Origin: a virus
Strand: one strand, 5' to 3'
Length of the DNA: 62,037 nt
Virus record (IMG/VR): IMGVR_UViG_3300027535_000001
Coordinates: 1-62,037 of that record
In this document: positions 5,046 through 29,712 of the stretch, piece after piece
Numbering within the stretch: the stretch's first letter is position 1
How the letters are laid out: every line of letters begins with the position of its first letter
Position numbers and translations under genes: made by a program
The notes under the pieces: model-generated
What the model was told of the DNA's origin: nothing
Databases searched by the model: none
Seen by the model: only the letters and a program-made list of their open reading frames with translations

Positions 5046-5179
5046 CGGCAACACCCCTGATGCGCGCACTTGCCGCCGCTGATAACCAGGCCGTGCTCGG
5101 CGCAAGGGATCGCAACGACGAGCCAGACCACGAACACCATCATGATAGCCGTTACGGCGCCCCACATGATGCTTGTCAT
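5042..5179 (-). CDS. small single-pass membrane protein (45 aa)
   Basis: MTSIMWGAVTAIMMVFVVWLVVAIP... ATGA overlaps with the DNA polymerase stop (5176) and with the next gene (5042). Confidence 0.5.
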   Translation of the reverse strand: MTSIMWGAVTAIMMVFVVWLVVAIPCAEHGLVISGGKCAHQGCCR

Positions 5180-14702: not shown

Positions 14703-14913
14703 CCTCGATCGAGGAGCGAGGCACCCGGCGCCGCACGCTTACATGCGACCGCATGTCGCATGCTAACCGAGCGGTAGAATTGTTAACCGGCCGGTAGAAT
14801 CGCCCGGTCGACGGCCCGCAGCCGTGGTGATGCTCGGGGTAGCCACCTCAACCGTCCCCCAAAAATAAAAAATGCCCTATTGCAAAACGCGCTTGTTTGT
14901 GTTTAGCCTCGAT

Positions 14914-14979
14914 CGCTCGGCGCCTCACTCCTTCGGCTCACCCACAGCCTCCTCACACCGAAGCGAGGGGCGCCGAGCG
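14914..14979 (+). promoter_or_regulatory. long nested stem-loop in the 5' leader of the CHAP gene
   Basis: Outer arms cgctcggcgcctc (14914-14926) / gaggggcgccgagcg (14965-14979). Inner arms cttcgg (14931-14936) / ccgaag (14958-14963). Ends 25 nt before ATG 15004. Confidence 0.5.
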
Positions 14980-15003
14980 CGAAACCCGAGGGATTTCAAT
15001 TAT

Positions 15004-15510
15004 ATGGCTGATCCCGCACCCGATGCCGACCCGACACCGTGGCTCACCAAGGCGATCTCGTATATCGGCGTGCACGAAGTCGGCTCGTCGAATTTCTCGC
15101 CGCAGATCGCGGCATGGGAAAAAGAGCAGGGTTTTAAGATCGAGCCCGAGCCGTGGTGCGCGATCTTCGTCGGGGGGTGCTTGGTGGAAACCGGGCGCGA
15201 GGGCAGCGGCACCGAGTGGGCGCTCGACTACGCCCAGTGGGGCCAGGAACTCGACGGGCCGGCGGTCGGCGCCATCGTGCCGATCAAGCGGCCGGGCGGC
15301 GGCCACGTGTTCTTCGTACTCGGCAAGGATTCGATAGGCCGCATCGTCGGTGTCGGCGGCAACCAGAGCGATCAGGTCAGCCGCGCCGCTTTCCCGCTCT
15401 CGCGCATCAACCACGGCTATCGCTGGCCGGCCGATGATCCACTGCCGGACGAAACCGGCATGGACAGCCTGCCGGTCATCAACGCGGACGGATCAACCAA
15501 GGAGGATTGA
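15004..15510 (+). CDS. TIGR02594-like NlpC/P60-CHAP cell-wall hydrolase
   Basis: Start MADPAPDADPTPW at 15004. Catalytic-type blocks PWCAIFVGGC and GGGHVFFVLG, then VGGNQSDQVS, as in TIGR02594 phage peptidoglycan hydrolases. Confidence 0.8.
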   Translation: MADPAPDADPTPWLTKAISYIGVHEVGSSNFSPQIAAWEKEQGFKIEPEPWCAIFVGGCLVETGREGSGTEWALDYAQWGQELDGPAVGAIVPIKRPGGGHVFFVLGKDSIGRIVGVGGNQSDQVSRAAFPLSRINHGYRWPADDPLPDETGMDSLPVINADGSTKED

Positions 15511-16884: not shown

Positions 16885-17177
16885 GCCCTCTTGCTATCTT
16901 GCTTGGTACCGGCGCCGGTCTCGTGCTTGCCCTCACCGCGAGAGCCGCCGAGCCCCCCGCCTATCCCTGCCCCGACAAGGCGCCGTCATGCAAGATCATC
17001 ACGCTCACCCCCGAGGAGGAGCGCGCCTTGGTGGGGCCTAACCTCATCTTCGATACCGCCCAGCAGGGCCGGCCGCTCGATCTCATGCAGGCGATCGCCT
17101 ATTTCCGGCAGAAGATTTTGACGGCGCCGGCCGGGACTGTCGAGGTGCCGAAAGCGGAGCCGCCGCCAAAACCCTGA
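16881..17177 (+). CDS. secreted small protein (signal peptide)
   Basis: ATGA overlap at 16881. MSPLAILLGTGAGLVLALTARAAEPP has signal-peptide character. Confidence 0.6.
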   Translation: MSPLAILLGTGAGLVLALTARAAEPPAYPCPDKAPSCKIITLTPEEERALVGPNLIFDTAQQGRPLDLMQAIAYFRQKILTAPAGTVEVPKAEPPPKP

Positions 17178-17239
17178 TGGGCGCCTATTACAACGAGATC
17201 GTCCCGCAAGTCGCGGCGCAATTCATCCGCGCAACCCTA

Positions 17240-17273
17240 TTGACAACCGCTATCCGCTAGTGCTACCCACTAG
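17240..17273 (+). promoter_or_regulatory. candidate promoter with overlapping palindromic operator
   Basis: TTGACA at 17240-17245. Inverted repeat ctagtg (17257-17262) / cactag (17268-17273) sits where a -10 element would be. Confidence 0.35.
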
Positions 17274-17459
17274 ACGCTCGTCTGTCCCCACCCGCCTTCG
17301 CCAAGTGGCTACGGCGGGCAAGGCGAGCACGGCCGGACCCTTTCCCGTCCTGCAACGGCGTGTCCCCCCAAGGGTCCGGCCCTCCTCCTTCGCCAAGGCT
17401 TTGGAGGGCGAGCCACTTCAACTAGGCGGGCTTGTCCGCCGTAGCTTTAGCGAAGGCGG

Positions 17460-17708
17460 ATGGCCCGTCGCAAGCATCAGGTTGCCAAGTACCCGACCAG
17501 CATCGACGTTCCGTTCGATCTCAAGCGGGACTTGGATGCTATCGCCAAGAAGCTCGATCGCTCGCGCACCTGGGTGATGGTCCATGCGCTCAAGCAGTAC
17601 GTCGAGTATTTCAACACGCACGAGAGGAAGAAGAAAGTAAACACGCTGGTGGATCAGCCGGACGCTAATCAGATGAGCGAGCAGGATGGGCAAGCGGGAA
17701 CTGATTGA
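17460..17708 (+). CDS. ribbon-helix-helix (CopG/Arc-type) DNA-binding protein
   Basis: TSIDVPFDLKRDLDAIAKKLDRSRTWVMVHALKQYVEYF has the beta-alpha-alpha RHH pattern. Confidence 0.7.
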   Translation: MARRKHQVAKYPTSIDVPFDLKRDLDAIAKKLDRSRTWVMVHALKQYVEYFNTHERKKKVNTLVDQPDANQMSEQDGQAGTD

Positions 17709-17862
17709 CATTACGGCGCAAGTGCGCGGCGAAACCGACAAGGCGTGGCGGTTGTTCGATGGCGTGCGTACCGAGTGGGTGCCAAAATCGCAAGTCGAGA
17801 AGAATGATGATGGGACGTTCACCATGCCAGAATGGCTGGCAGCAAACAAAGGATTTATCTGA
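17686..17862 (+). CDS. hypothetical protein (58 aa)
   Basis: MGKRELIDITAQVRGETDKAWRLFDGVRTEWVPKSQVE... Overlaps the RHH 3' end. TGATG junction with the next gene. Confidence 0.5.
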   Translation: MGKRELIDITAQVRGETDKAWRLFDGVRTEWVPKSQVEKNDDGTFTMPEWLAANKGFI

Positions 17863-18077
17863 TGACAATCGGCGAAGATCGCGTACGCACCGAGTTCAAT
17901 CCGAGCGCCAATACGGTCGTGAACCAGATCAAGCAGAAGTCGGCCGAGTTGATCGACATCTGCGCAACCGCTGCTCCCGGCTCTCCGGGTGAGCAGCACC
18001 GTCTATACGCCCTTGCCATGACGGCTTATGAGGAAGCCGCCATGTGGGCCGTCAAGGCGGCCACCATCGGCAAGTGA
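17862..18077 (+). CDS. hypothetical helical protein (71 aa)
   Basis: Start MTIGEDRVRTEFNPSANTV at 17862. TGATG junction with the GT75-like gene. Confidence 0.55.
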   Translation: MTIGEDRVRTEFNPSANTVVNQIKQKSAELIDICATAAPGSPGEQHRLYALAMTAYEEAAMWAVKAATIGK

Positions 18078-19075
18078 TGAAAATCGCGCTTATCACGACA
18101 GTCATCCACGTTCCCGAAGTGTTGCGCGTCTATCGCGCGCATGACGCTTCCACGCGCTTTTTTGTCACGGGCGATCTCGCAACTCCATATGCGGCCGTCC
18201 GCGCTTTGTGCGACGAGTTGAAAAATGCCGTCTACCTCACTCCCGAGCACCAGCAAAATTGGCGCTCCTCCGACGTGTTCGGTTGGAACACCACCTGCCG
18301 CCGTAACATCGCTTTGCTTGAAGCTCTCAAGTGGGGCGCCAACGTCATCGTGACGGTCGACAACGATAATCTGCCAATGGGCCGCAATATCCTCAAATTC
18401 CGCCACTCGTTCGAGGACCACACGGGTTTGCGCGCCATCAGCGAAACCGGCTGGGTCGATCCCTATCGCCCGTTTGGCATCCCGCATCGCGGCTTTCCAT
18501 TCACCAAGTCGGCCCCCGCCGATTTTGAGTCAGTCGTCAACGCGAAGGTCGGTGTCGTTGCCGGCATCGTCATCGGCGATCCCGATATATCGGCCATCAC
18601 CCGCATCGCTCGTTCGCCTATCGTACATGCGGTAACCGAGCCGCTGCGGCATGGCTTTGTCGTACAGCCGAGCGCCTGGACGGTGTTCAACTCCCAGAAC
18701 ACCGCTTTCCTCCGCGAGCTGGCGCCCGCCATGATGATGATTCCCGGCGTTGGGCGTTACGATGATATTTTTGCCTCCCTGATCTGCCAGCGCGTCATGC
18801 GCGAGAAAAACCTTCACGTGCGTTTCGGCCCGCCGTTCGTATGGCAGCAGCGCAATCCCCACGACTTGATACAGGACTTGAAGGCCGAGATTTTTGGTGA
18901 GGAGCATGTGGTGGAGTTTGCCGAATGGCTCGATAGCCTGCGGTTTGCCGCCGACATGCAGAGCGTAGCCAAGATGGTGCGCTATATTTACGAGTGCATG
19001 CCTGATTGGATGCCGAGCGTAACAACGGAAGCGGGGGAGGCTTGGTTCCATGATGTGGAGTACGCGATGTCATGA
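18077..19075 (+). CDS. GT75 / reversibly-glycosylated-polypeptide (UDP-arabinopyranose mutase)-like protein
   Basis: Start MKIALITT. Blocks align with plant RGP: TVDNDNLP~IDDDCFV, HRGFPF~RGYPF, GDPDISAITR~NIPDYDAPTQ, GVGRYDDIFASLICQ~PIGRYDDMWAGWC. Confidence 0.6.
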   Translation: MKIALITTVIHVPEVLRVYRAHDASTRFFVTGDLATPYAAVRALCDELKNAVYLTPEHQQNWRSSDVFGWNTTCRRNIALLEALKWGANVIVTVDNDNLPMGRNILKFRHSFEDHTGLRAISETGWVDPYRPFGIPHRGFPFTKSAPADFESVVNAKVGVVAGIVIGDPDISAITRIARSPIVHAVTEPLRHGFVVQPSAWTVFNSQNTAFLRELAPAMMMIPGVGRYDDIFASLICQRVMREKNLHVRFGPPFVWQQRNPHDLIQDLKAEIFGEEHVVEFAEWLDSLRFAADMQSVAKMVRYIYECMPDWMPSVTTEAGEAWFHDVEYAMS

Positions 19076-19182
19076 TGTTGCGCACGGTTGACAAGTTGAT
19101 TCGCGTGGTTTGTGCTGGCGCAATATTGCTGCTTGTGTCCATCGCGCTGCTACCTTGGTTTACGGTGCTGCAATGTCATTGA
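19072..19182 (+). CDS. tiny hydrophobic peptide (36 aa)
   Basis: ATGA overlap at 19072. MMLRTVDKLIRVVCAGAILLLVSIALLPWFTVLQCH. Overlaps the MazG start. Confidence 0.35.
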   Translation: MMLRTVDKLIRVVCAGAILLLVSIALLPWFTVLQCH

Positions 19183-19556
19183 CCTTCGATGCGCTCCGCG
19201 AGGCAAACGTAACCCGTCTTCTCGAGCTGAAAGATAGCAAGGGCGAGAAGGCGCGAGAGCTATCTACGCCCGCGTGGTGCATGGCGGCGCTCGCCAAGTT
19301 TGGCCTGGTGGCTAATCTTCTCCATCAGGTGGATCGCGGAACTTACGAGATCGAGGATATCCGCCAAGAGCTTGCCAACGAGCTGGCGGATTGCGTTACT
19401 TACCTCGATATTCTTGCCTACAAGGCGGGAGTTGACTTGGGAGAGGCTACGGCCCGCAAATGGAACGCCACCAGCAAGCGGTCGGGTAGCGACTTAAGGA
19501 TCAGCTCCACCGGAGAAAGCGTGATCAGGCGCAAACTCAAGGGGCAAGAGGAATGA
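19173..19556 (+). CDS. mazG: MazG-like nucleoside triphosphate pyrophosphohydrolase
   Basis: Start MSLTFDALREANV. EIEDIRQELANELADCVTYLDILA is the metal-binding helix motif typical of all-alpha NTP-PPases. Confidence 0.7.
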   Translation: MSLTFDALREANVTRLLELKDSKGEKARELSTPAWCMAALAKFGLVANLLHQVDRGTYEIEDIRQELANELADCVTYLDILAYKAGVDLGEATARKWNATSKRSGSDLRISSTGESVIRRKLKGQEE

Positions 19557-19732
19557 ACGTGACATTGCGACCTAATGGCATTCCAGACGTGTATCTCAAT
19601 AGTCCGGGAGAGCGGTGCGACTTGGCAGAATTGGATAAGCACATTCGTGCTTTGCAAACAGCGAGACGGTGGCTGATGGCTGAACAGAACCAAGTAACGC
19701 AAGTACAAAAGACCGCCGAGAAGAAAAAATGA
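19553..19732 (+). CDS. hypothetical protein (59 aa)
   Basis: ATGA overlaps at both ends. MNVTLRPNGIPDVYLNSPGERCDLAELDKHIRALQ... Confidence 0.5.
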   Translation: MNVTLRPNGIPDVYLNSPGERCDLAELDKHIRALQTARRWLMAEQNQVTQVQKTAEKKK

Positions 19733-20952
19733 CTCGCGTCGCCATTGCTTTCTTGACCAAGGACAGGGTCGAATTGACCAAACAGTCGATCGTTCCGGTA
19801 TGCGACGCGCCGGTCGATATTTTTTTTGTCGATGGTTCCGAAACCCCGGAGGGGCGCGAGTTTCCGAGAAAATACTGCTTGCAGGAAAAGCGGCTTGAAC
19901 AGCTCGCCGAGCGCTTGGGCACCGTCGAGTTCCACGACGACATCAAGGGCGGCGCCGATGCGGCCGTGGCGTATGCGTTGACCAAGATGCTGGCTGATCC
20001 GCTGTACGACTATGTCGGCATCGTCGAGAGCGACGTACTGCTGGAACCGAGGTGGTTTGAGCTGACTATGGCGTTGTTCGAGGGGTATGGTGTTGGCGCT
20101 GTTTCGGCACGTTCGTATCGCGATCGCGTGCTGTTCCAGCGTGACGGTTATGCCGTGATGCACAATCTCGGCTACGGCATGGTCATCTGGTCGAGAAAGG
20201 CCGCCACACTGGCGCTTTCCCACTTCCGTACGTGTTGGACGCGAGAGAACCGCCGCGCATTTGCTCAACTGGCCGGCGTCGACATTGGCAAGTTCTGGGC
20301 TTTCCGTACTGGCGAGCACGAGTTGGTTAGCGATTGGAATTTGGATCGCGTCCTCGCGATGCACGGTATGGCAAGCCTCGCCCTCACTCCATCTCGTGCC
20401 AGCATGATCGGCCAGAACCTAGCCGAGCAAGGGTTAGAGTTGGTCACTTCCCCAGTCGAGGAACGCCGCGACGAGAAGGCGTTTCAGGTCTACAAAGACC
20501 ATTTGTGGATCATGCGCGAGCGACCGGTCGACAGTGCGATCCATTTTGATGTGGACAAGGGTTGGTTTTATTTCGCTCATCAGCTCGCCGATTACTTTCA
20601 CGGCGAGTGGTACCTGCACACATCGCAGGGCTTCGGCCCTTTCGCCTATCGCTCGGCCGCTCCCGGTGCCACCTTGGTCGCCTGGCTCGCCGGCCCGCTG
20701 ACGGTCCTGGCCGGCGGCCACGGGCAGATTGAAATTCTCGATACCAACAGTGCCTACCGCACGTCTCCGCCTCTCGATACCGACAGCATGATTGAGATCG
20801 CCGTCCCGGCCGGTATTTCGTACCGCGAGATCAGGATCACGGCCTTGACCAAGGGTGTGGGCATTTACGGCATCGGCACACGCGAGCAGCAGCTTCTCTT
20901 GCGTGGCCGGTCGTTTGATTGGAATCAGTTGCCCCCGATGGAGGTAGTATGA
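19729..20952 (+). CDS. GT-A-fold glycosyltransferase-like protein with unknown C-terminal domain
   Basis: 407 aa. N-terminal VAIAFLTKDR...FFVDGSETPEG...VGIVESDVLLEP resembles the GT2 Rossmann/DxD layout. The C-terminal ~190 aa are unassigned. Confidence 0.5.
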   Translation: MTRVAIAFLTKDRVELTKQSIVPVCDAPVDIFFVDGSETPEGREFPRKYCLQEKRLEQLAERLGTVEFHDDIKGGADAAVAYALTKMLADPLYDYVGIVESDVLLEPRWFELTMALFEGYGVGAVSARSYRDRVLFQRDGYAVMHNLGYGMVIWSRKAATLALSHFRTCWTRENRRAFAQLAGVDIGKFWAFRTGEHELVSDWNLDRVLAMHGMASLALTPSRASMIGQNLAEQGLELVTSPVEERRDEKAFQVYKDHLWIMRERPVDSAIHFDVDKGWFYFAHQLADYFHGEWYLHTSQGFGPFAYRSAAPGATLVAWLAGPLTVLAGGHGQIEILDTNSAYRTSPPLDTDSMIEIAVPAGISYREIRITALTKGVGIYGIGTREQQLLLRGRSFDWNQLPPMEVV

Positions 20953-21980
20953 AGCGCGCTCTTGTTCTTGGTGGCAACGGCTTTCTCGGCGCCCATATGG
21001 TTGCCCGATTGAGCAATGAGGGTTATGGGGTGCGCGCGGTTGGGCGCCATCGGCCGATTTTGGAGCAAACCGGATGGCGCTCGCCTGTAGCCGGCGCTGA
21101 TGAGTTCAACATTTGGGATTTGCGCCACCCGCCCATTCCCAAGAACTTCTTTGAGAATATCGACGAGGTGTACCAGTTCGCCAGTGAGTCCGGTGGTCTC
21201 GGCTACATCGAGAACCCCACCAACAGCGTCGACATCCTGACCAGTTCGATCCAGATAAACCTCAATGTTCTGGAGTGCTGTCGTCTCGCGGGTGTGCAAA
21301 GAATTTTCTTCGCCAGCTCGGCGTGCGTATACCCGGAGAAAATCCTCTACTACTACAACGCCCCCTACCCGTTCCCGCAAGCCAATGTCGCGCCGACCGA
21401 AGCGTCGGCTTATCCGGCGAATCCGCCCAATCCGTTCGGATGGGAAAAGCTGTTCGCCGAGCGCCTGTATGAGACTTACGCCAAGCATTTCAATATCGCG
21501 GTCTCGATCGGCCGGTTTGGCAACACGTACGGCCCCGGCATGCCATGGCAGGACCCGCGAGCGAAGGTCATCGGTGCGCTCATTCGCAAGGTGGTGGAGG
21601 CGACCGAGGCCGTGGACATCTGGGGTGACGGCATGCAGAAGCGGTCGTTCACCTATGTGGATGACGCGATCGAGGGTGCGCGGCGCATGATGCTGGCGGC
21701 TCAACCCGGCCCGCTCAACATCGCCAATGCCGCGACGGTGACGATAAACCAGTTGACCGACCAGCTCATCGCCATGTCGGGCAAGCGGCTGATGAAAAAC
21801 TACATTTCAGGTCCGACTGGCATGCGCGAGCGGGGCAGCGACAACTCGCTTATCCGCATGAAGCTCGATTGGGAGCCGTCGATTCCCCTAGCCGAAGGGC
21901 TTATTCCGACTTATCGTTGGGTAGAGGCGCAGATGGGGCTTGACATACTATCTACGAAGGCGCATACGGGCTCGGGATAA
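20949..21980 (+). CDS. GDP-mannose 3,5-epimerase-like extended SDR
   Basis: GGNGFLGAH Rossmann motif. FASSACVYPE, FGWEKL, IGRFGNTYGP, WGDGMQKRSFTYVDD and GSDNSLIRMKLDWEP align block-by-block with plant GME. Confidence 0.75.
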   Translation: MKRALVLGGNGFLGAHMVARLSNEGYGVRAVGRHRPILEQTGWRSPVAGADEFNIWDLRHPPIPKNFFENIDEVYQFASESGGLGYIENPTNSVDILTSSIQINLNVLECCRLAGVQRIFFASSACVYPEKILYYYNAPYPFPQANVAPTEASAYPANPPNPFGWEKLFAERLYETYAKHFNIAVSIGRFGNTYGPGMPWQDPRAKVIGALIRKVVEATEAVDIWGDGMQKRSFTYVDDAIEGARRMMLAAQPGPLNIANAATVTINQLTDQLIAMSGKRLMKNYISGPTGMRERGSDNSLIRMKLDWEPSIPLAEGLIPTYRWVEAQMGLDILSTKAHTGSG

Positions 21981-21994
21981 CCGAGGGACAGGTC

Positions 21995-22705
21995 ATGATT
22001 TTCAGCTATTGCCGGGTGAGCACCGCCGAGCAGGCGACCGACGCCTCCACTTCCTTGGAGACCCAGGAGCGCAAGAATCGCGCTATCGCGATGTTGCGGG
22101 GCTCGAATCCCTTTGACGTAGTGAACTACGTGGACGCGGGCGTGTCCGGCAGCATTCCGCTGAATAAGCGGCCGGCTGGCGCCCGCATGCTGGCGGATGT
22201 GAGCCGTGGCGACATCATAGTTTGCACCAAGCTCGATCGCATGTTCCGCTCGGCGATCGACGCCCTCATGACGATTGCGCAATTGCGGACAGCCGGCGCC
22301 CACCTGATCATGCTGGACGTGGGGACCGAGCCCGTCGGTACCAACGGCATCTCGCAGCTCTTTTTGACCATGCTCAGCGCTTTCGCCGAGTTCGAGCGCA
22401 CCCGCATTGCGGAGCGCATGGATGACGGTCGCCGCGCCAAGGCACTCAAGCAGGGCTGCCTTGGGGCGGTGCCGTACGGCTGGCGCAAGCAGGGTAGTGG
22501 CAAAGAGTCGCTGCTGGTGGAGGACGCCGACGAGCAGGCCGTCATCGCCCGTGTGCGGGCTATGCGGGAGACGGGGCGGCAGGGCGGTGAGCGCAAGCCG
22601 TACGGCATCGCGCAAAAGCTGACTGCCGATGGCATCATGACGCGATCGGGCAAGCCGTTCCGGGTGCCGCAGATACAGCGCATTCTCGAACGGGTGTCGG
22701 CATGA
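21995..22705 (+). CDS. serine recombinase (resolvase catalytic domain + partial 'recombinase' domain, no zinc-ribbon/coiled-coil)
   Basis: 236 aa. YCRVSTAEQ nucleophile motif, GDIIVCTKLDRMFRS, then GAVPYGWRK...IAQKLTADGIMTRSGKPF, as in the second domain of large serine recombinases. Confidence 0.85.
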   Translation: MIFSYCRVSTAEQATDASTSLETQERKNRAIAMLRGSNPFDVVNYVDAGVSGSIPLNKRPAGARMLADVSRGDIIVCTKLDRMFRSAIDALMTIAQLRTAGAHLIMLDVGTEPVGTNGISQLFLTMLSAFAEFERTRIAERMDDGRRAKALKQGCLGAVPYGWRKQGSGKESLLVEDADEQAVIARVRAMRETGRQGGERKPYGIAQKLTADGIMTRSGKPFRVPQIQRILERVSA

Positions 22706-22797
22706 TACGCGTGCTGATCCTTCTCCAGGTGATATCGCTGATCCTGTCCGGCTTCGTACTGTGGTACGCGATACGAATTTACCGGCGGGTGCAGTAA
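22702..22797 (+). CDS. tiny hydrophobic peptide (31 aa)
   Basis: ATGA overlap with the recombinase stop. MIRVLILLQVISLILSGFVLWYAIRIYRRVQ. TAATG junction downstream. Confidence 0.4.
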   Translation: MIRVLILLQVISLILSGFVLWYAIRIYRRVQ

Positions 22798-23012
22798 TGA
22801 CCAAGGCCGAGTTCGACGAGATGGCGAGAACGAACTGTCCGCATTGCGCGGCCGGGTTGGAAGTGCGCCAGCGGCTCGATACCAAAGAGTTCGTTCACGA
22901 CCATACGGCAGAAGGTTCGCACCGGCATACGATCTGCTGGTCGAACGGGATGCGGCAGTCGGAAGATAAGTTTGTGCCTTCACATGTTGCCACGCTGCCG
23001 AGCAGCGCATGA
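22797..23012 (+). CDS. hypothetical Cys/His-containing protein (71 aa)
   Basis: MTKAEFDEMARTNCPHCAAGLEVRQ...HRHTICW. ATGA junction with the TPR-GT gene. Confidence 0.5.
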   Translation: MTKAEFDEMARTNCPHCAAGLEVRQRLDTKEFVHDHTAEGSHRHTICWSNGMRQSEDKFVPSHVATLPSSA

Positions 23013-24430
23013 ACGACACCTCGTTTGAGCAAGCCGCAAAAATATCCGACGAGCGCCAGCGACGGCGTTCGCTTGCAATCAAACTTTACAATGCGGGCGT
23101 CGAGGCGGCGAACAACAAGATCAATCAGCAAAACGTCGACCACGCCTATAAGGCGTTCATGGATGCCTGCTACGCCGATCCGATCTATGGCTTGGCGTTC
23201 TACCAGGCGGGCAACAACGAGTCCGATCGCAATATGCTGGCGGCTTCGGTGGCGCTTTACCGCCGCGCCCTGGAGTGCGACAATTCGCCGCAGGAGAAAG
23301 CCAAGACGCTGGTCAATCTCGGCTGGCGGCTGCATTGCCTAGGCATGTCCGAGGAAGGCCACAAGGCGTCTTTGGAGGCCGTCAGCCTCGATTCATCGCT
23401 TGCCTACGGCTGGCTCAACCTGTCGATGACTTCAGGCATGTTGGGTGAGCAGGATTTCGCTGCGGAGTGTGGACGTAAGGCATTCATGCTCGACCCAAAA
23501 GACCCGATTTGCGAGATGGCTTACGCGTTCTCGCTTTTGTTCAATCATCAGTTCGCGCTCGGCCTGAAACATTTCGAGCGCCGGTTCGAGTACAAGCTCA
23601 CGCAGTACGCGCACTATCCGTATCCCCGCTGGAGCGGCGAGCCCGACAAGACGGTTTTTCTCGTGTCCGATCAGGGCATGGGCGACACGCTGTCATACAG
23701 CCGCTTTGTCAGGCAGGCTGCCAAACGAGCGAATTTTCTGCATATTTGCGTGCAACCCGAGTTGATGCGATTGTTTGCTCATGCGTTCGCGGATTTGAAG
23801 AACATAAATTTCATGCCGCAACCTGGCGTCTTTCCCGCTGCCGACTACTGGACCACGTTCGTCAGCCTGCCGTTTGCGTTGGGTTTTACCGACAAGGAGA
23901 TTCGCACCGCCAAGAATATCGAGGCGCCGATCTACGGCTTGCCTCGTACTTGGAAAGTGCCGGATCGCAAGTTGCATATCGGTATCGCGTGGGCCGGCAG
24001 TCCGCTCAATGAGATCGACCAGCACCGCAACATTCCGGTCCACCACTTCTTCGATCTCTACCGCGTTCCCGGCATTCAGCTCTACGCGTTTCAGGTTGAC
24101 GGCAAGAAGGACCAGTTGCACCAGAATGGCGGCGCTGCGCTGGTGCGGGACTTGTCGGGTTACATCCGTGATGTGGTCGACACCATCAGCTTGTTGCAGG
24201 ATATCGACTTGGTGATTTGTTGCGAGTCGGCGCTGGGGCACATTGCGGCGCTGGCCGGCAAGGAGTGCTGGATACCGTACAGCTATCTGGGGCGAGACTA
24301 CCGGATTGGGCTCGACGGCAGCGACCGGCTGTGGACACCACGGCATAGGATTTTTCCGCAAGGTGCCAGCCGCGATTGGGGACCGGCGTTCGAGTCCATG
24401 ATCTACGCGTTGAAGGATAGGATGCGATGA
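23009..24430 (+). CDS. TPR-repeat + GT-B (GT9-like) glycosyltransferase
   Basis: 473 aa. The N-terminal ~190 aa are TPR-like helices. C-terminal PRWSGEPDKTVFLVSDQGMGDTLSYSRF...IGIAWAGSP...LVICCESALGHIAALAG matches the heptosyltransferase-like fold pattern. Confidence 0.6.
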   Translation: MNDTSFEQAAKISDERQRRRSLAIKLYNAGVEAANNKINQQNVDHAYKAFMDACYADPIYGLAFYQAGNNESDRNMLAASVALYRRALECDNSPQEKAKTLVNLGWRLHCLGMSEEGHKASLEAVSLDSSLAYGWLNLSMTSGMLGEQDFAAECGRKAFMLDPKDPICEMAYAFSLLFNHQFALGLKHFERRFEYKLTQYAHYPYPRWSGEPDKTVFLVSDQGMGDTLSYSRFVRQAAKRANFLHICVQPELMRLFAHAFADLKNINFMPQPGVFPAADYWTTFVSLPFALGFTDKEIRTAKNIEAPIYGLPRTWKVPDRKLHIGIAWAGSPLNEIDQHRNIPVHHFFDLYRVPGIQLYAFQVDGKKDQLHQNGGAALVRDLSGYIRDVVDTISLLQDIDLVICCESALGHIAALAGKECWIPYSYLGRDYRIGLDGSDRLWTPRHRIFPQGASRDWGPAFESMIYALKDRMR

Positions 24431-24642
24431 GCTGGTCTCGCGAAGTTTTTTCCTCCAACGTGCAAACAGTTGCGTATGACAGCGACACGTTCGAGCTTGT
24501 GGTGACGTTCCAGAATGGCTCGTCCTATGCGTACTCGGGCGTGGATGAGGGAACCGCCATCGCACTCTCCAAGGCGCCCTCGGTGGGCGGAATGCTCAAC
24601 GCCGAGATTAAGGGGCGGTACCCGCATAGGAAATTGTCATGA
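24427..24642 (+). CDS. KTSC domain protein
   Basis: VQTVAYDSDTFELVVTFQNGSSYAYSGVDEGTAIALSKAPSVGGMLNAEIKGRY fits the KTSC pattern (YD..L.V.F.nG..Y.Y..V......S.G). Confidence 0.8.
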   Translation: MSWSREVFSSNVQTVAYDSDTFELVVTFQNGSSYAYSGVDEGTAIALSKAPSVGGMLNAEIKGRYPHRKLS

Positions 24643-24881
24643 CGGCGAGCGACTGCTTCAAGAACATGGCCGCTCGCATCGAGCACAACGCCGACTCCAA
24701 GTTTGGCGGGGCGGTCGTGATCTATCCGCCCGATGAGGGCGGCGATCCGATCGAGGTGCTGCTGCTCGACCAGGCGAGCGATCCCGTCATGTTCTGGCAA
24801 ACCGTGCAGTCGCGCATTGCGATCGTGCTGGAAACCCTCAAGGACAAGCAGCGCCAGTCGGCGGCGTTCGGGCGGCGATGA
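24639..24881 (+). CDS. hypothetical protein (80 aa)
   Basis: ATGA overlaps at both ends. Sits just upstream of terminase, so a small-terminase role cannot be excluded or supported. Confidence 0.55.
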   Translation: MTASDCFKNMAARIEHNADSKFGGAVVIYPPDEGGDPIEVLLLDQASDPVMFWQTVQSRIAIVLETLKDKQRQSAAFGRR

Positions 24882-25024
24882 ACCGCGCTCTCGCTTGGCC
24901 CATCGTCATCTCGTTTTTTCTCGGCGGCCTTGTCTTTGCCGAGTGCGCCGTTTATGTGGCGGGGTGCCAATTGTTCGGTGCCGATTGGCATTGCGGAGGT
25001 GTCGCGCGTAAGCATCACCATTGA
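24878..25024 (+). CDS. small membrane protein (48 aa)
   Basis: ATGA overlap. MNRALAWPIVISFFLGGLVFAECAVYVAGCQLF... Confidence 0.4.
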   Translation: MNRALAWPIVISFFLGGLVFAECAVYVAGCQLFGADWHCGGVARKHHH

Positions 25025-25078
25025 CAGAGCGGCCCATTTTCGTACACTCGTCTTGTTGCTGTCTCTTGGAAGGAGACA

Positions 25079-27073
25079 TTGTCGTCCCTGAGTAACCGCC
25101 ACCCGCTCCCGGAGTTGGTGCATTCCCGTCTTGCGGGTGGCGGCATTCCCCTCTACGCTCTCCGCATGGCAGGCTGGTCACAGAAAAAGCGCGACGCCGT
25201 TGAGAAAGCGTTTTACGGCTATCTCGACCAGTGCTGGATCAATTCCAAAGACCTTGGCCGAATTTGCCTTGGCGAGCATCTTTATGACGGCCAGCGCCGG
25301 CTCATCACTGAGATTTTTGACGCGCTCCAAGCCGACATTCACAAAATTTACGTGTTGAAGTCGCGCCAATTGGGGGTTTCCACCCTCATCCGCGCTCTCA
25401 TGGCTTTCCTTCTCGGCATCCATCCGGGCCTCAAGGGCGCGGTGGTGTTCGACTCGGATACCAATCGATTGGAGTCGCGGGTTGAACTGACCACGATGAT
25501 CAAGGATTTGCCGCTGGCCCTTCATTTCCCGGCGATCGGCCTCGACAATCGTGCTGGCCTGACTCTCCAGAACGACAGCCGCCTGCTTTTTCTCTCGGCC
25601 GGCGTGAAGAAATCCAAAACTAGCGGCACACTTGGCCGATCGGTCGGCCTTTCCTTGGCGCACTGCTCGGAATTGTGCTCGTGGGACAACGACGAGGGTC
25701 TTGAGGCATTCGAGCAGTCGCTATCCGACAACAACCCCGATCGCCTGTATGTTTACGAGTCGACCGCACGGGGTTTTAACAAGTGGCACGACATGTGGGA
25801 GGAGGCTCGAAAGGACCCCGACCATTGCCGCTGCATCTTTCTTGGCTGGTGGAGCAAGGAGTCGCAAAGCATCTTGCGCGAAGACAAGGACTTTGCCAAA
25901 TACGGCGAATATCCGCCGACCGAAGGCGAGTTGAAGAAGATCAGCGCTGTTCGAGAGCAATATCACCACATTATTAAGCCTGAGCAGCTTGCTTGGATAC
26001 GTCGCAAGATGGACCCGGCGTTGCAAGGGATCGGCGACGGCGACATTCATTTCGACGCCAACCCGACGCGGGTGCAGGAGCAGCCGTGGACGGAGAGCGA
26101 GGCATTTCAGCAGACTGGTGCGGTGTTTTTCGGCTCCGAAAAGCTCACGGTCCAGACCAACGATAACGTCAGCGACCGTTACGATTCTTACATGTACAGC
26201 CTCGCCGACGAGTTCGACACGATGTTTATCGTGCGCGCCCAGAACGCCAAGTCGGTAGAGCTGAAAGTCTGGGAGCCGCCCGAACGGAATGCCGTCTACG
26301 TGATGGGCATCGATACGGCACACGGCGAGAACGAGTCGAATGACCGCTCGTCGGCGCAAATTCTGCGCTGCTACGCGGATGGGCTCGATCAGGTGGCCGA
26401 GTACACGTGGCCGCTGGTGACGACCCAGCAGTACGCGTGGGTGATTGCGAGCCTTCTCGGCTGGTACGGCTCCGAAGGGTCCGAGGTTCGCTATATTCTC
26501 GAACTGAACGGTCCCGGCACGTCGGTTTATACCGAGTTGAAACAGTTGAAGCAGAAACTCGACCGGGGGTTCCGGTTGGACAAGATCGAGGAAAAGGGGC
26601 TTCAAAACATCTTTGCCAACGTGCGGACGTTCATCTACTCCCGCCCCGACTCGATCGGCCACGGGCACAATTTTCACTTCAAGACCACGTCGGCGCTCAA
26701 AGTCACCATCATGGAGGACTTGCGCAACAACGTGTCGAATGGCATCTTGCGGGTGCGGTCGATGGACGCCATCAAGGAAATGACGGCCATCGCACGTGAC
26801 GGTGACAAGATCAGCGCGCCGGGGTCCAAGAAGGACGACCGCGTGGTCTCGATGGCGCTGGCGAACTACTATTGGAAGAATAATATTCGCAGTGTGTTGA
26901 TCTCGCAAAAGCGTACCCGGCAGGCAGAGGCGGCAAAGAAGCAATTGAGCATCCACGATCAGATTTATCTGTTTTCGCAAAACCAGCTCAGCCAGTTTTT
27001 TGCCGACAAGCAGCGCTCTCGCCGGACCGTGGAGCGGGAACTGTCGCGTCGGCGCTGGCGGTACGGGAGATAG
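25079..27073 (+). CDS. terL: terminase large subunit
   Basis: 664 aa, TTG start 6 nt after GGAAGGAG. Walker-A-like KSRQLGVST. C-terminal RNaseH-like nuclease acidic blocks MGIDTAHGE and KKDDRVVSMALANYYW. Followed by a portal-sized gene. Confidence 0.8.
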   Translation: MSSLSNRHPLPELVHSRLAGGGIPLYALRMAGWSQKKRDAVEKAFYGYLDQCWINSKDLGRICLGEHLYDGQRRLITEIFDALQADIHKIYVLKSRQLGVSTLIRALMAFLLGIHPGLKGAVVFDSDTNRLESRVELTTMIKDLPLALHFPAIGLDNRAGLTLQNDSRLLFLSAGVKKSKTSGTLGRSVGLSLAHCSELCSWDNDEGLEAFEQSLSDNNPDRLYVYESTARGFNKWHDMWEEARKDPDHCRCIFLGWWSKESQSILREDKDFAKYGEYPPTEGELKKISAVREQYHHIIKPEQLAWIRRKMDPALQGIGDGDIHFDANPTRVQEQPWTESEAFQQTGAVFFGSEKLTVQTNDNVSDRYDSYMYSLADEFDTMFIVRAQNAKSVELKVWEPPERNAVYVMGIDTAHGENESNDRSSAQILRCYADGLDQVAEYTWPLVTTQQYAWVIASLLGWYGSEGSEVRYILELNGPGTSVYTELKQLKQKLDRGFRLDKIEEKGLQNIFANVRTFIYSRPDSIGHGHNFHFKTTSALKVTIMEDLRNNVSNGILRVRSMDAIKEMTAIARDGDKISAPGSKKDDRVVSMALANYYWKNNIRSVLISQKRTRQAEAAKKQLSIHDQIYLFSQNQLSQFFADKQRSRRTVERELSRRRWRYGR

Positions 27074-27075
27074 TG

Positions 27076-27651
27076 ATGGGCTACGCCGTCAAATGCCCCT
27101 CTTGCAAGGCCAAGTTCCCCTGGAACGTCAAGCAGGGAATGCCCAAGTGCTGCCCGCTGTGCGGCTACGATACGTCGATCCCCGATACCGACGAGATTTC
27201 GATGCCGGCATTCCTCTCCCCGAGCACCAAGGCCAACGACAAGCTCTACCGTGACATGGAGCGCGGCTCCGAAGTGCGGGCTCAAGCTGCGGCCGACATG
27301 CTGGAAGTGCCTGTGTCCGAAATGTCGGCGCTGAAAATTACCGATATGAACGACCGGCGGGACCGCGAGACATCGGCCGTGCAAGTGGTCAATCCGGTGA
27401 CCCAGCAGATGGATTATCTCAACAAGCGCGGTGGTAATTTCGGCTTTGGCCAGAATGGTGCAGAGTTCAGTTCCGAGGTGCAGAGTGGTGGCGTGACGGT
27501 GAATGGCCAGACAACGCAGGGAATCGGCGCGAGTGCGGGCGCCAGGATGCGTGCTACGTTGCAGGAGGTTCACGGCCGGACCACCGGAAAGGTGTCGACC
27601 GATTATCCGGCACTGGAGACGTTGCAGCCTGGTTATAGGAAGCGCGCATGA
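27076..27651 (+). CDS. zinc-ribbon protein between terminase and portal
   Basis: CPSCKAKF...CCPLCG N-terminal ribbon. The start could be GTG 27073 or ATG 27076. Confidence 0.6.
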   Translation: MGYAVKCPSCKAKFPWNVKQGMPKCCPLCGYDTSIPDTDEISMPAFLSPSTKANDKLYRDMERGSEVRAQAAADMLEVPVSEMSALKITDMNDRRDRETSAVQVVNPVTQQMDYLNKRGGNFGFGQNGAEFSSEVQSGGVTVNGQTTQGIGASAGARMRATLQEVHGRTTGKVSTDYPALETLQPGYRKRA

Positions 27652-29366: not shown

Positions 29367-29712
29367 ACAGACCGCTCGGCTGGAGCACCGCAGGGCTCCC
29401 TGCTTGTGCCCGCATGGCGGCGCGTAGCGCTGGGTCGCTCAAAGCTTCGTTTTGGATTGCGGCCCGGATACGCATCTCGTGTAGTGCCCGTTCCTTGTGA
29501 GCGACTTTCGATTGGTTGGTGTCCTCCACCATCGCGCCATTGATGGTGCTTCCCCGGATGGATGCCATCTGACCGAAGTCGTCGGAGAACAGGTTAATGT
29601 CGCCGTCTTTGTAGGATATGCGATCGGCTTGCGCCGAAGCTGTTTCCATCGTCTTGTACATGAAAGACCAGCCGACATTTCCGGTACCGAACGAAATGCT
29701 GATGACGTACAT
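29353..29712 (-). CDS. hypothetical protein (119 aa), antisense to the structural operon
   Basis: MYVISISFGTGNVGWSFMYKTMETASAQADRISYKDGD... TAATG-coupled to the upstream HTH gene. 3' end overlaps the portal 3' end by 14 nt. Confidence 0.55.
   Translation of the reverse strand: MYVISISFGTGNVGWSFMYKTMETASAQADRISYKDGDINLFSDDFGQMASIRGSTINGAMVEDTNQSKVAHKERALHEMRIRAAIQNEALSDPALRAAMRAQAGSPAVLQPSGLFNGG

Follow-up and report, generated by a model that had tools for sequence, protein, structure and literature searches.

The documented route to GDP-L-galactofuranose (GDP-L-Galf) combines a GDP-mannose 3,5-epimerase (GME) with a GT75 protein, and in the GT75 protein MtdL, R138 is the nucleophile arginine, D230 the general-base aspartate and H287 a Mn ligand, while the inactivity of AtRGP5 is accompanied by the loss of the histidine equivalent to His287 (PMC9937993). 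As for transfer, FlmG binds its protein acceptor through a TPR domain, and TPR plus GT-B is the architecture of soluble protein O-glycosyltransferases (PMC7591256).

The window analysed here is the whole 62,037-nucleotide stretch of virus record IMGVR_UViG_3300027535_000001, which belongs to a lineage of uncultivated phages of soil and groundwater. Just upstream of its DNA-packaging gene lies a sugar cassette (Table 1), whose soluble enzymes probably change the ring of a host sugar nucleotide to an unusual form before attaching it to a target. The reading we favour, with confidence a little short of even, is a conserved cytoplasmic module which would provide a GDP-L-hexofuranose-type donor and transfer the sugar under TPR direction to a protein, which is most likely a component of the virion.

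Table 1. Features of the cassette block and its downstream flank
Position	Strand	Feature	Evidence
17686-17862	+	58-aa protein, first gene of the chained block	phrog_8389 E=1e-8
17862-18077	+	Acb2/Tad1-hairpin protein	Pfam PF24729 E=2.5e-12, 47 bits vs cutoff 27
18077-19075	+	GT75 (RGP/UAM/MtdL-type) protein	PDB MtdL 7yua/7xpr
19075-19182	+	Putative 35-aa hydrophobic ORF between GT75 and MazG-like genes	Kyte-Doolittle maximum 2.69
19173-19556	+	127-aa all-alpha protein, weakly MazG-like, accessory	PF12643 E=0.023, below cutoff
19553-19732	+	59-aa protein	No family match
19729-20952	+	GT-A-fold glycosyltransferase-like protein	AF2 model, Foldseek
20949-21980	+	Extended SDR, closest to GDP-mannose 3,5-epimerase	PDB GME 2c5a E=8e-64
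21995-22705	+	236-aa serine recombinase: catalytic domain and short recombinase-domain stub	Pfam Resolvase 1.2e-30
22702-22797	+	Putative 31-aa hydrophobic ORF	Sequence, hydropathy
22797-23012	+	71-aa Cys/His-containing protein	Zinc-ribbon matches, weak
23009-24430	+	TPR and compact GT-B protein, GT9-like (TPR-GT)	AF2 pLDDT 93.9
24427-24642	+	KTSC-domain protein	PF13619 E=6.6e-16
24639-24881	+	80-aa conserved protein (g80), directly upstream of TerL	No family match
24878-25024	+	48-aa hydrophobic ORF, closing the block	Also called as gene on ENA contig
25021-25048	+	Sigma-70-like promoter match, best of the region	TTGACA-16-TACACT, 10/12 matches
25166-27073	+	Large terminase (TerL), downstream anchor	34% identity to annotated TerL, Manatee Spring phages

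Organization of the gene block

The sequence-only reading had described a translationally chained sugar-modification block (17686-25024) upstream of the terminase, with an embedded serine recombinase and a KTSC protein, and all of these elements were recovered. The genes are all on the + strand, and their junctions comprise 13 overlaps of 1-10 nt (TGATG, TAATG and ATGA types) and one 14-nt gap between the GME-like SDR gene and the recombinase gene, a count that depends on accepting three small hydrophobic ORFs, without which gaps of 97, 91 and about 285 nt appear. An ENA contig with an identical TPR-GT protein, which covers the block from the 3' end of the GT-A gene onward, carries an independent gene call with matching boundaries for all genes covered, including the 71-aa and 48-aa ORFs, and small hydrophobic ORFs lie in the gap equivalent to that of the 48-aa ORF in L002, L004, L006 and L009/L013 (the last two being one and the same contig). 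However, the structural genes downstream likewise overlap by -1 or -4 (27073/27073, 27651/27648, 36135/36135 and 37748/37748), so the genes are indeed chained, but no more than is usual in phages, and close packing does not set this block apart.

At the downstream end, the KTSC gene always lies between TPR-GT and TerL in the relatives, sister lineages included, and g80 shows 30-56% identity across all of them. The TerL ORF opens at 25079, while homology begins near the Met at 25166, and the protein shares 54-67% identity with its relatives. The total count of sigma-70-like sites in the region is at chance level, and the best match, between the cassette and TerL, is only a hint; it was counted against the assumed late co-expression.

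Several members of the block are small or accessory. Several relatives have homologues of the 58-aa protein (47-62% identity) upstream of the cassette, L007 and L012 have homologues of the 59-aa protein adjoining the GT-A gene, and in about 10 relatives homologues of the 71-aa protein lie between the recombinase and TPR-GT genes. The recombinase keeps its position in every relative with a full cassette, and its matches to the phrog_95 integrase (5e-46) and CcrB (2e-19) both cover the N-terminal part only. The Acb2/Tad1 gene, which the sequence-only reading had not spotted, has a TGATG overlap at each end and encodes a candidate anti-CBASS/anti-Thoeris nucleotide sponge; it has no homologue in any related locus and is accessory, outside the conserved sugar core. 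The 127-aa protein, which had been called a MazG NTP pyrophosphatase, barely retains that label, with no PDB, NCBIfam or PHROG match, and its gene was found in none of the relatives. The sugar enzymes of the cassette hold, but these two genes mean that it is not made of sugar genes alone.

Sugar-nucleotide enzymes

The GT75/RGP-like assignment was borne out by matches to MtdL at E=2.5e-21 with the single sequence and 1e-45 with the family profile, and the Pfam RGP score of 23.9 bits just passed the cutoff of 23.8. Among the mapped functional residues of MtdL, 14/20 are identical and invariant in 16/16 phage GT75 sequences; R138, D230, D170, R227 and Q207 are all kept in 16/16. I15 (15/16), D110 (14/16) and S228 (12/16) are largely kept, and the differing positions are N42 (variable), D87 (mostly Ile) and H287, which is Gln in 16/16. 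The first and third positions of the DXD motif are also kept, and the middle one is D in 14/16 and N in the window. The protein is a candidate Mn-dependent mutase from NDP-pyranose to NDP-furanose. A GT75 homologue in the cultured cyanophage S-T4 lies within a heptose/LPS-type sugar island.

The SDR, previously proposed to resemble GME, is GME-like at family level, the next family reaching only 5e-24, 40 orders of magnitude weaker. It keeps GxxGxxG, the equivalents of Cys145 and Lys217 (the epimerisation pair) and Lys178, but its YxxxK motif reads FGWEK, with the catalytic Tyr replaced by Phe. In canonical GME, this Tyr is required for the transient C4 oxidation. Of 14 distinct orthologues, 10 have Phe at this position and 4 have Tyr.

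These two substitutions, Tyr to Phe in the SDR and His to Gln in GT75, make the chemistry of the cassette uncertain. It might depart from the MtdM/MtdL route, with an SDR that would act on host GDP-4-keto-6-deoxymannose as a 3,5-epimerase, redox-dead or specific for keto-sugars, and with GT75 acting as a self- or Arg-glycosylating transferase instead of a mutase. The predominance of Phe, the invariant Gln, a GMD gene (Pfam 9e-72) adjoining a Phe-variant SDR in L025, and the conservation in the phage family of the Arg autoglycosylated by GT75 proteins all point this way. Nevertheless, purifying selection on GT75 and SDR is clear and their other catalytic positions are all kept, four SDR orthologues retain Tyr within an otherwise similar sequence pattern, and Gln can still ligate metal, and we consider this departure unlikely.

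The donor sugar also varies among relatives. The GME-like SDR was not found in the cassette of L007 and possibly of L016, where its position falls within a 5.5-kb stretch scanned only in part, and an unrelated SDR takes its place in L002-5, L026 and L030-31; hence there is no single fixed donor sugar. A gene set for nucleotide-sugar remodelling and transfer is indeed present, as had been proposed, but "self-contained" is too strong a description, given that GDP-mannose synthesis is missing and the SDR is swapped or lost in relatives.

Glycosyltransferases

The presence of a GT-A-like protein with an additional C-terminal domain was upheld, by structure only. The AF2 model (pLDDT 90.7) comprises a GT-A fold (residues 1-~265) and a C-terminal beta-sandwich (~278-384), and the best Foldseek match in the PDB was GnT-I (9.5e-10), followed by the LH3 GT domain, SpsA, POMGnT1 and RmlT. 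E100-x-D102, which is invariant in the family, lies just after a beta strand in a DXD-type placement. Pfam GT2_3 reached only E=0.0066, below the cutoff, and none of 368 homologues carried a Pfam domain or name.

Structure likewise confirmed the TPR and GT-B composition of TPR-GT, with a TPR region at residues ~1-200 and a GT-B fold at ~205-473, while sequence support for GT9 is weak (Pfam GT9 in 7/17 family members, best E=0.0097). For the catalytic domain, no CAZy family and no solved structure gave a significant match by sequence; the DQGxGD and ESALGH motifs of the protein are invariant. Foldseek placed SPINDLY first among PDB structures (3e-12), then OGT and XcOGT. In BFVD, the protein matched a TPR protein of S-SRM01 over its whole length (TMq 0.67) and resembled shorter viral "GT family 9" proteins (target lengths 302 and 250; TMt 0.69-0.73), and Aah/TibC and RfaF were further structural matches. 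TPR-GT is a candidate acceptor-selecting glycosyltransferase.

Glycosylation of phage DNA as protection against restriction is the classical role of phage glycosyltransferases, and the weak MazG-like gene and the DNA methylases close to TPR-GT or terminase in L036 and L021 could be read accordingly. However, this role is very improbable here. In agreement with the sequence-only reading, Pfam scans of 53 window ORFs, within HMM sensitivity and with many ORFs lacking any Pfam match, found no hydroxymethylase, TET/JBP, deazaguanine or other base-modifying gene; the MazG-like gene is not shared by relatives, and T4 alpha-/beta-glucosyltransferase was not among the top 50 structural matches of either GT model. 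To our knowledge, DNA glycosyltransferases with a TPR domain for acceptor binding are without precedent.

Conservation in related phages

At least 25 phage contigs (60-68 kb each, 40-65% identity) share, in synteny, the core order GT75, GT-A, SDR, recombinase, TPR-GT, KTSC, g80 and TerL, and by this comparison, which was beyond the reach of the sequence-only reading, the cassette is a core module of the lineage and not a moron. Sister lineages retain only TPR-GT, KTSC, g80 and TerL; in L040/L041, GT4, DUF4422/GT111, an FAD enzyme and an SDR stand instead of the other cassette enzymes, GT111 being a galactofuranosyltransferase family (PMC12269835). TPR-GT is the most widely conserved enzyme, and the oldest and most constant member of the module. 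GMD, an FkbM methyltransferase and a Methyltransf_24 protein are inserted in the cassettes of relatives.

Soluble glycosyltransferases could instead remodel a host envelope glycan by acting on cytoplasmic-face lipid-linked intermediates of LPS, capsule, EPS or S-layer glycan, in which case a masked or altered receptor would give superinfection exclusion or keep progeny from being trapped on debris. The host is apparently coated with polysaccharide, as the tailspike of the phage resembles GH141/pectate lyases and a fibre includes an endosialidase-chaperone domain; the classical role of GT9 enzymes is that of LPS heptosyltransferases, GT111 and GT4 are polysaccharide enzymes, the S-T4 island is of LPS type, and the two serine recombinases of the genome leave lysogeny open. 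Yet all cassette enzymes are soluble, and no flippase, membrane glycosyltransferase, polymerase, ligase or Wzx/Wzy/Gtr-type gene was found among the scanned genes. An N-terminal TPR on a GT-B enzyme is a hallmark of protein-directed transferases, and the cassette is a terminase-adjacent core set in a lineage with its own PolA and primase, with no integrated prophage copy found in genomes of 185,579 species. Envelope remodelling therefore seems rather unlikely.

A protein acceptor, most likely a phage structural protein, is what we infer, but TPR-GT and its partners might also glycosylate host cytoplasmic proteins for takeover or anti-defence, as toxin/effector glycosyltransferases do. This would suit the architecture, a module directly following an Acb2/Tad1 gene, the DHH/DHHA1 phosphoesterase or DNA methylases that relatives carry near the cassette, and a promoter-like site by which the cassette might be uncoupled from late-gene expression. 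It is quite unlikely, however, because a rare furanose donor diversified by methyltransferases, GMD and other SDRs is typical of a surface-exposed glycan and would not fit an inactivating single-sugar modification, and no data point to any host target.

With regard to virion acceptors, the fibre and decoration proteins had been called extremely Ser/Thr/Gly-rich, which is overstated (S+T 19-22% in the richest proteins). Related phages with no TPR-GT found in 3-6 kb of upstream sequence share the capsid and decoration proteins, so these provide no acceptor correlation. Overall, the earlier interpretation is partly supported.

Comparison with known systems

In the preferred reading of virion-protein glycosylation, the SDR and GT75 enzymes would remodel a host GDP-hexose from GDP-mannose through GDP-L-galactose to GDP-L-galactofuranose, like MtdM/MtdL in A201A biosynthesis, or alternatively by a 6-deoxy route starting at host GDP-4-keto-6-deoxymannose. 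The TPR domain of the GT-B enzyme would then select a cytoplasmic protein acceptor, most likely a structural protein encoded by the adjacent late genes, its GT9-like domain would add the first sugar, and the GT-A enzyme may add to or lengthen the glycan; relatives would vary the sugar by SDR swaps and by added GMD or methyltransferases.

Compared with MtdL, the invariant Gln of phage GT75 at the Mn-ligand position His287 counts against canonical mutase chemistry. At the positions that govern base selectivity, T13 is matched by Thr in 16/16 and S86 by Thr/Ser in 13/16, which are residues of GDP type, whereas UDP-using plant RGPs have Pro and Asp instead. The TPR and GT-B layout agrees with the protein O-glycosyltransferase architecture of FlmG that had been invoked for it, and its best solved matches, SPINDLY, OGT and XcOGT, are TPR-guided protein O-glycosyltransferases, of which SPINDLY uses GDP-fucose.

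Organization of the cassette

The plus-strand block at 17686-25024 consists of 15 ORFs, which overlap by 1-10 nt at 13 junctions (TGATG, TAATG or ATGA) and are separated by 14 nt at one. The translationally chained block described in the sequence-only reading is therefore borne out, provided that three hydrophobic ORFs of 31-48 aa, which are uncertain as genes and occupy the only sizeable gaps, are counted; the unbroken chain depends on them, and without them the block would be interrupted by stretches of 97, 91 and about 285 nt. Similar small hydrophobic ORFs, not conserved in sequence, lie between g80 (an 80-aa protein) and the terminase gene terL in the related phage contigs L002, L004, L006 and L009/L013 (the last two being one contig), and consistent conservation of the three ORFs was not found among the relatives. 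An ENA contig encoding an identical TPR-GT, the TPR and GT-B protein of the cassette, has an independent gene call with the same boundaries for all genes covered, including the 71-aa and 48-aa ORFs. The chaining is real but represents ordinary phage gene packing and is not special to this block, because the downstream structural genes are packed alike. The strongest sigma-70-like match within 14-30 kb (TTGACA-16-TACACT, 25021-25048, plus strand) is located between the cassette and terL, where it could split the cassette from late transcription, as judged from a motif whose total number of sites is at chance level.

Features of the cassette and of the remaining genome
Feature	Position	Strand	Evidence or remark
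First ORF of the block	17686-17862	+	
Acb2/Tad1-hairpin protein	17862-18077	+	Pfam PF24729, E=2.5e-12
GT75 protein	18077-19075	+	PDB match to MtdL
Small hydrophobic ORF	19075-19182	+	Fills sizeable gap of the block
Weakly MazG-like protein	19173-19556	+	One sub-threshold match, E=0.023
ORF before the GT-A gene	19553-19732	+	
GT-A-fold protein	19729-20952	+	Predicted structure
GME-like SDR	20949-21980	+	PDB match to GME
Serine recombinase	21995-22705	+	Catalytic motif intact
Small hydrophobic ORF	22702-22797	+	Fills sizeable gap of the block
71-aa Cys/His protein (Zn-ribbon position)	22797-23012	+	
TPR + GT-B protein (TPR-GT)	23009-24430	+	Predicted structure
KTSC protein	24427-24642	+	Family match
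g80	24639-24881	+	Conserved order, directly before TerL in relatives
48-aa hydrophobic ORF	24878-25024	+	Also called on the ENA contig
CHAP-domain protein (lysis enzyme)	14872-15510		
GH141/pectate-lyase-like tailspike	48912-50705		
1,040-aa fibre	51449-54571		Weak endosialidase-chaperone (S74) domain
Rv2525c-like glycoside-hydrolase-like protein (lysis enzyme)	54617-55270		
Second serine recombinase, 216 aa	58950-59600	+	Resolvase 6e-40 and C-terminal HTH; classic resolvase/invertase size

The Acb2/Tad1-hairpin protein, which had been overlooked, belongs to an anti-defence family and is not encoded by a sugar gene, and its gene is translationally coupled to that of the GT75 protein. By its family match, it is a candidate sponge for CBASS or Thoeris signalling nucleotides. 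At the equivalent spot, the relative L007 carries a DHH/DHHA1 phosphoesterase (4655-5548), and the two genes together suggest an anti-defence hot spot upstream of the sugar cassette. Neither the Acb2 gene nor the MazG-like gene was found in any relative, and both are confined to the phage of the window. The MazG pyrophosphatase proposed earlier was not upheld, its single match being at motif level with nothing further in support.

Family matches confirmed the serine recombinase and KTSC labels. The similarity of the cassette recombinase to large serine recombinases (CcrB and the phrog_95 integrase) covers only their N-terminal ~230 residues, its own C-terminal region being a stub, and the small Cys/His protein comes directly after it in about 10 relatives. 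It is fixed between the SDR and TPR-GT genes throughout the lineage. With the one at the far end of the window, the genome possesses two serine recombinases.

Nucleotide-sugar enzymes

The GT75 protein matched MtdL, an NDP-pyranose mutase of the A201A pathway (chains 7yua/7xpr), with E=2.5e-21 as a single sequence over residues 64-273. When 16 phage orthologues were combined into a profile, the match to MtdL reached E=1e-45 across positions 3-315, which is nearly the full length. Pfam RGP reached 23.9 bits against a cutoff of 23.8, and many homologues have precomputed RGP or STELLO Pfam matches in the database. According to the functional residues defined in the MtdL structure paper (PMC9937993), 20 positions were mapped, 14 of which are identical to MtdL and invariant in all 16 phage sequences, including T13, D40, R90, D109, D111, N112, R159, D195, Q229, R257, D260, R289 and H292. 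In phage numbering, D95/D97 (outer DXD), R138 (equivalent to the glycosylated, nucleophilic R159 of MtdL), D170, R227 and D230 (equivalent to the general base D260) are invariant (16/16). Of the other MtdL positions, I15 (15/16), the middle DXD residue D110 (Asp in 14/16, the window having N96) and S228 (12/16) are retained in most sequences. The MtdL matches and these catalytic residues thus sustain the earlier GT75/RGP-like label, with mutase activity as a prediction. To date, characterised GT75 mutases come only from two bacterial antibiotic pathways and from plants (PMC9937993).

Two positions were reported to set GDP versus UDP use in GT75, at which plant RGPs carry Pro and Asp (PMC9937993). 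The phage proteins are GDP-like at both, with Thr at T13 in every sequence (16/16) and Thr or Ser at S86 in 13/16. Three MtdL positions differ in the phage proteins: N42 is not conserved, Ile mostly takes the place of D87 (with Thr in the window), and the Mn2+-ligand His, H287, which active members conserve, is replaced by Gln (Q257) in 16/16 sequences. Active plant GT75 enzymes have Ser at the D87 position, and the inactivity of AtRGP5 is accompanied by loss of both this His and R257 (PMC9937993). Unlike AtRGP5, the phage GT75 proteins retain the R257 equivalent.

The SDR is an extended SDR whose Rossmann GxxGxxG motif reads GGNGFLG, and its best PDB match is a GDP-mannose 3,5-epimerase, GME (2c5a, E=8e-64), followed by the UXS family (5e-24). 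In AtGME, used as the reference for numbering, we take C145 and K217 to be the acid/base pair of epimerisation and Y174 the catalytic Tyr of YxxxK. The segments SSACVYPE and PRAKV align to this Cys and Lys. Among the GME-like orthologues, only L012 departs from the pair, with Arg in place of K217; the alternative SDR of L002-5, L026 and L030-31 lacks both residues. The YxxxK motif reads FGWEK, with the Lys kept and the catalytic Tyr replaced by Phe, and Phe occupies the same position in 2c5a. Phe was found in 10 of the 14 distinct orthologues (the window, L012, L014, L015, L017, L019, L020, L021, L023 and L025), while L008, L009, L010 and L028 retain Tyr (4/14). A compensating Tyr was sought in the Phe variants and no covariation was found. 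Owing to the Tyr replacement, the protein is classified as GME-like and not as a canonical GME: the family proposed earlier is indeed the closest by sequence, and the NAD motif and Cys/Lys pair are kept, but the catalytic Tyr is not.

The Tyr-to-Phe change of the SDR and the His-to-Gln change of the GT75 protein may reflect a different substrate, such as host GDP-4-keto-6-deoxymannose, or a different activity. This ketosugar would suit a Phe-variant SDR, because no initial oxidation is needed; in the cassette of L025, a GDP-mannose 4,6-dehydratase (9e-72) adjoins such an SDR. Altered chemistry of the two variant enzymes is an explanation that we regard as doubtful.

Predicted glycosyltransferases

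The predicted structure of the GT-A protein (AF2, pLDDT 90.7) contains a GT-A domain and a C-terminal beta-sandwich, and its Foldseek matches are GnT-I (9.5e-10), SpsA, LH3, POMGnT1, RmlT and hyaluronan synthase. E100-S-D102, a putative DXD-type metal/NDP-binding motif that follows the central strand (95-100), is invariant in 38 sequences. By sequence, the protein falls into no CAZy or Pfam GT family (Glyco_tranf_2_3 only, E=0.0066, below cutoff), no PDB sequence match was obtained, and no Pfam domain was found on 120 homologues. Hence the GT-A-like description with an additional C-terminal domain holds for the predicted fold but not for a sequence-level family assignment.

TPR-GT (AF2, pLDDT 93.9) begins with 11 helices (residues 6-202), a TPR region of ~200 residues that is also matched by sequence, followed by a compact two-lobe Rossmann-like GT-B domain. 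Its best solved Foldseek matches are SPINDLY (3e-12), OGT and XcOGT, with TM values of only 0.3-0.38 against GT41-type structures, perhaps partly driven by the TPR. The catalytic domain has no PDB sequence match and no sequence match to GT41. In BFVD, the whole protein matches a 'TPR protein' of cyanophage S-SRM01 (TMq 0.67), and structural matches to shorter viral proteins annotated as GT family 9 (TMt 0.69 and 0.73), Aah/TibC and RfaF were also obtained. The GxGD and ESALGH motifs are invariant in the family, and we consider the N-terminal 'xGD' and C-terminal 'ESALGH' to resemble GT9 consensus motifs. Pfam PF01075 (GT9) gave E=0.12 for TPR-GT, and 7 of 17 relatives were matched at E<=1 (best 0.0097), none reaching the 22-bit cutoff. 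The fold, motifs and TPR-GT-B architecture thus agree with the GT9-like transferase suggested previously, but the GT9 sequence match remains sub-threshold.

Conservation in an uncultivated phage lineage

Viral contigs, MAGs and metagenome proteins were searched with the TPR-GT, GT75 and TerL proteins, and a large uncultivated lineage with genomes of 60-68 kb was recovered, with samples labelled peat, soil, groundwater and forest soil. The cassette is conserved as a unit: the order GT75, GT-A, SDR, serine recombinase, (Zn-ribbon protein), TPR-GT, KTSC, g80, TerL, g192, portal is present in at least 25 loci at 40-65% amino-acid identity. The corresponding database families contain 732 (TPR-GT), 368 (GT-A protein) and 3,377 (GT75) proteins. 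The lineage has no close cultured relative, its TerL being at most 35% identical, and a megablast of 17000-29400 against cultured phages gave no match. The genome-collection scan did not assign a host, yielding only MAG contigs, all phage-like, binned to four different phyla, and no integrated prophage copy was found in one genome each from 185,579 species.

The SDR represents a variable slot, which is GME-like in most relatives and occupied by an unrelated SDR in L002-5, L026 and L030-31; a GME-like SDR was not found in L007, nor in L016, in which a 5.5-kb insert at this position was partly scanned. For the alternative SDR of L002-5, nothing more specific than generic epimerases was matched, and its sugar was left unassigned. 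Additional sugar-tailoring genes are inserted in the cassettes of relatives: besides the dehydratase of L025, FkbM-type methyltransferases at four loci from three contigs and a Methyltransf_24 protein.

Sister lineages (TerL identity 41-48%) keep TPR-GT (30-35% identity), KTSC, g80 and TerL, and in the TerL-anchored comparison the GT75, GT-A, GME-like and recombinase genes are absent from them. Between TPR-GT and KTSC, two of these loci (L040:5477-9310 and L041:1645-5069) carry a GT4, a DUF4422 protein, an FAD-dependent oxidoreductase and an SDR. DUF4422 has the GT111 galactofuranosyltransferase fold of WbbM/PamA (PMC12269835). The FAD enzyme was considered as a UDP-galactopyranose mutase and matched no solved UGM; for this reason, we claim no parallel furanose route in these loci beyond the GT111-family gene. 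The TerL-anchored gradient across lineages indicates that TPR-GT is the ancient constant and that the sugar cassettes are interchangeable.

Genome context and possible targets

The window appears to hold a whole podovirus-like genome, which also encodes an SNF2 helicase, a PD-(D/E)XK nuclease, PolA, a PrimPol-VapE primase and two SU10-adaptor-like proteins. The tailspike, the S74 fibre and the Rv2525c-like and CHAP proteins together hint at a polysaccharide-coated host. A scan of 53 ORFs of the window revealed no hydroxymethylase, TET/JBP, deazaguanine enzyme or DNA methylase, in agreement with the earlier remark that base-modifying enzymes are missing. With no acceptor-base enzyme in these ORFs, glycosylation of phage DNA, either T4-type or TET/5hmC-type, is unlikely. 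Among the relatives, an N6/N4 DNA methylase and an SNF2-like helicase lie directly upstream of TPR-GT (L036:6046-6930 and L036:4607-6064), and a Dam methylase lies just upstream of TerL (L021:18188-18688).

All enzymes of the cassette are soluble, lacking TM segments (maximum 19-residue hydropathy < 1.6), and the three hydrophobic ORFs of 31-48 aa, doubtful as genes, are the only membrane-type candidates. A flippase, polymerase, lipid-carrier GT, bactoprenol or membrane GT and acetyltransferase were sought for a Gtr-type module and none was found; Gtr-type seroconversion or O-antigen modification was rejected for lack of these membrane parts. Remodelling of host envelope glycans by the cassette would fit the polysaccharide-targeting tailspike and the analogy with cyanophages, but the TPR on the GT-B transferase and the lacking membrane parts speak against it, and we consider it rather unlikely. 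A takeover or anti-defence role through glycosylation of host proteins, to which the Acb2 gene next door lends some weight, seems to us distinctly improbable.

A virion protein would be the likeliest acceptor. Three points favour this: the core set lies against the genes for packaging and structure, relatives vary the sugar as is usual for exposed glycans, and mycobacteriophages offer a precedent. Co-occurrence pointed to no particular acceptor, as the capsid protein (32014-33033) and the Gly/Ser/Thr-rich decoration-like protein (33046-34215) are also present in relatives with TerL~35% (L044 and L049), in which no TPR-GT was seen within 3-6 kb of upstream sequence.

Proposed pathway

We propose that the GT75 protein and the SDR would turn GDP-hexose of the host into a donor of the GDP-L-hexofuranose type, following the precedent of GDP-mannose to GDP-L-Gal to GDP-L-Galf via MtdM/MtdL (PMC9937993). 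The TPR domain would pick a cytoplasmic protein, as in FlmG, the GT9-like domain would glycosylate it, and the GT-A enzyme would lengthen or add to the glycan. The weak points of this mechanism are the two active-site substitutions, the variable SDR slot, the promoter-like site before TerL and the acceptor comparison by co-occurrence, which gave no candidate. Of the self-contained glycosylation system read from the sequence, a glycosylation cassette with a protein-GT-like transferase stands; it is neither self-contained nor purely sugar-related, and its tie to the virion is putative. That an abundant uncultivated phage lineage O-glycosylates proteins, of its own virion or of the host, with an L-hexofuranose, through TPR-GT9-like transfer and a donor route of GT75 and a Tyr-less SDR, is put forward tentatively, as possible and short of probable.

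If true, a virus would here be using an FAD-independent pyranose-furanose mutase route for the first time, in a modular design with a conserved 'initiating' TPR-GT and interchangeable cassettes (the GT75 route here, GT4/GT111 in sister phages). A GT75 gene in the core of a phage lineage, with >3,000 metagenome relatives, would greatly widen the expected range of L-furanose sugars. Such a phage glycan would affect virion adsorption, stability, immune or lectin recognition, or the host surface. TPR-GT with its swappable cassettes would also provide a natural system for studying the uncoupling of acceptor choice from glycan identity, and the Phe-type SDR and Gln-type GT75 would serve as natural variants for testing mechanistic models of both families.

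Comparison with known systems

The closest parallel to the donor route is MtdM/MtdL (with Hyg20), known from A201A and hygromycin A biosynthesis, which pairs a GME with a Mn-dependent GT75 GDP-L-hexopyranose mutase. In the phage, both enzyme families likewise lie within a few kb of each other, and the catalytic Arg and Asps, outer DXD aspartates and GDP-type Thr13 and Ser/Thr86 of GT75 as well as the Cys/Lys pair of the SDR are shared. The differences are that a phage takes the place of an actinomycete antibiotic cluster as carrier, that Gln stands for the Mn-ligand His, Ile/Thr for D87 and Phe for the catalytic Tyr of the SDR, and that the sugar presumably goes onto a macromolecule via the GT-A protein and TPR-GT rather than onto a nucleoside antibiotic.

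Similar to FlmG, OGT and SPINDLY, TPR-GT is soluble and has an N-terminal TPR superhelix followed by a two-lobe GT-B. In FlmG, the protein acceptor is bound by the TPR (PMC7591256), while the donor of SPINDLY is a GDP-L-sugar (GDP-fucose complex 8dti). However, the catalytic domain of TPR-GT is much smaller (~270 aa), GT9-like instead of GT41, and without detectable sequence similarity to these enzymes. The Aah/TibC autotransporter and LPS heptosyltransferases (GT9) resemble TPR-GT in motifs and structural matches, but differ by the TPR fusion, the PF01075 score far below threshold and a phage without an ADP-heptose pathway.

Distant versions of the cassette parts are found in the sugar islands of cyanomyoviruses, such as gp104-gp119 of Synechococcus phage S-T4 (NC_048049). 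Its gp110 (9001-9909), listed as hypothetical or as a 'putative membrane protein', is homologous to the GT75 protein (33% identity, E=9e-27); the island around it also encodes three or four glycosyltransferases, a methyltransferase, a nucleotide-sugar epimerase and fragments of the heptose pathway. As well, GME-like SDRs at 40% identity are present in many cyanomyoviruses, and the S-SRM01 TPR protein is 23% identical to TPR-GT. In contrast to these variable islands of 145-245 kb myoviruses, the window has a compact syntenic core by TerL in a podovirus-like genome of ~62 kb.

In mycobacteriophages, phage-encoded GTs reportedly glycosylate virion proteins in the cytoplasm, with genes beside the structural module, in work attributed to Freeman et al. 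in 2023; the cassette of the window is likewise beside the structural module. Chloroviruses encode GTs and nucleotide-sugar enzymes that decorate capsid proteins in the cytoplasm. The present predicted system differs from both in its other GT families, its TPR-guided transferase and its predicted furanose-type donor. What is new relative to known viral glycosylation is the previously unrecognised, predicted GT75 furanose route, the conserved TPR and GT9-like hub, and the two natural active-site variants.
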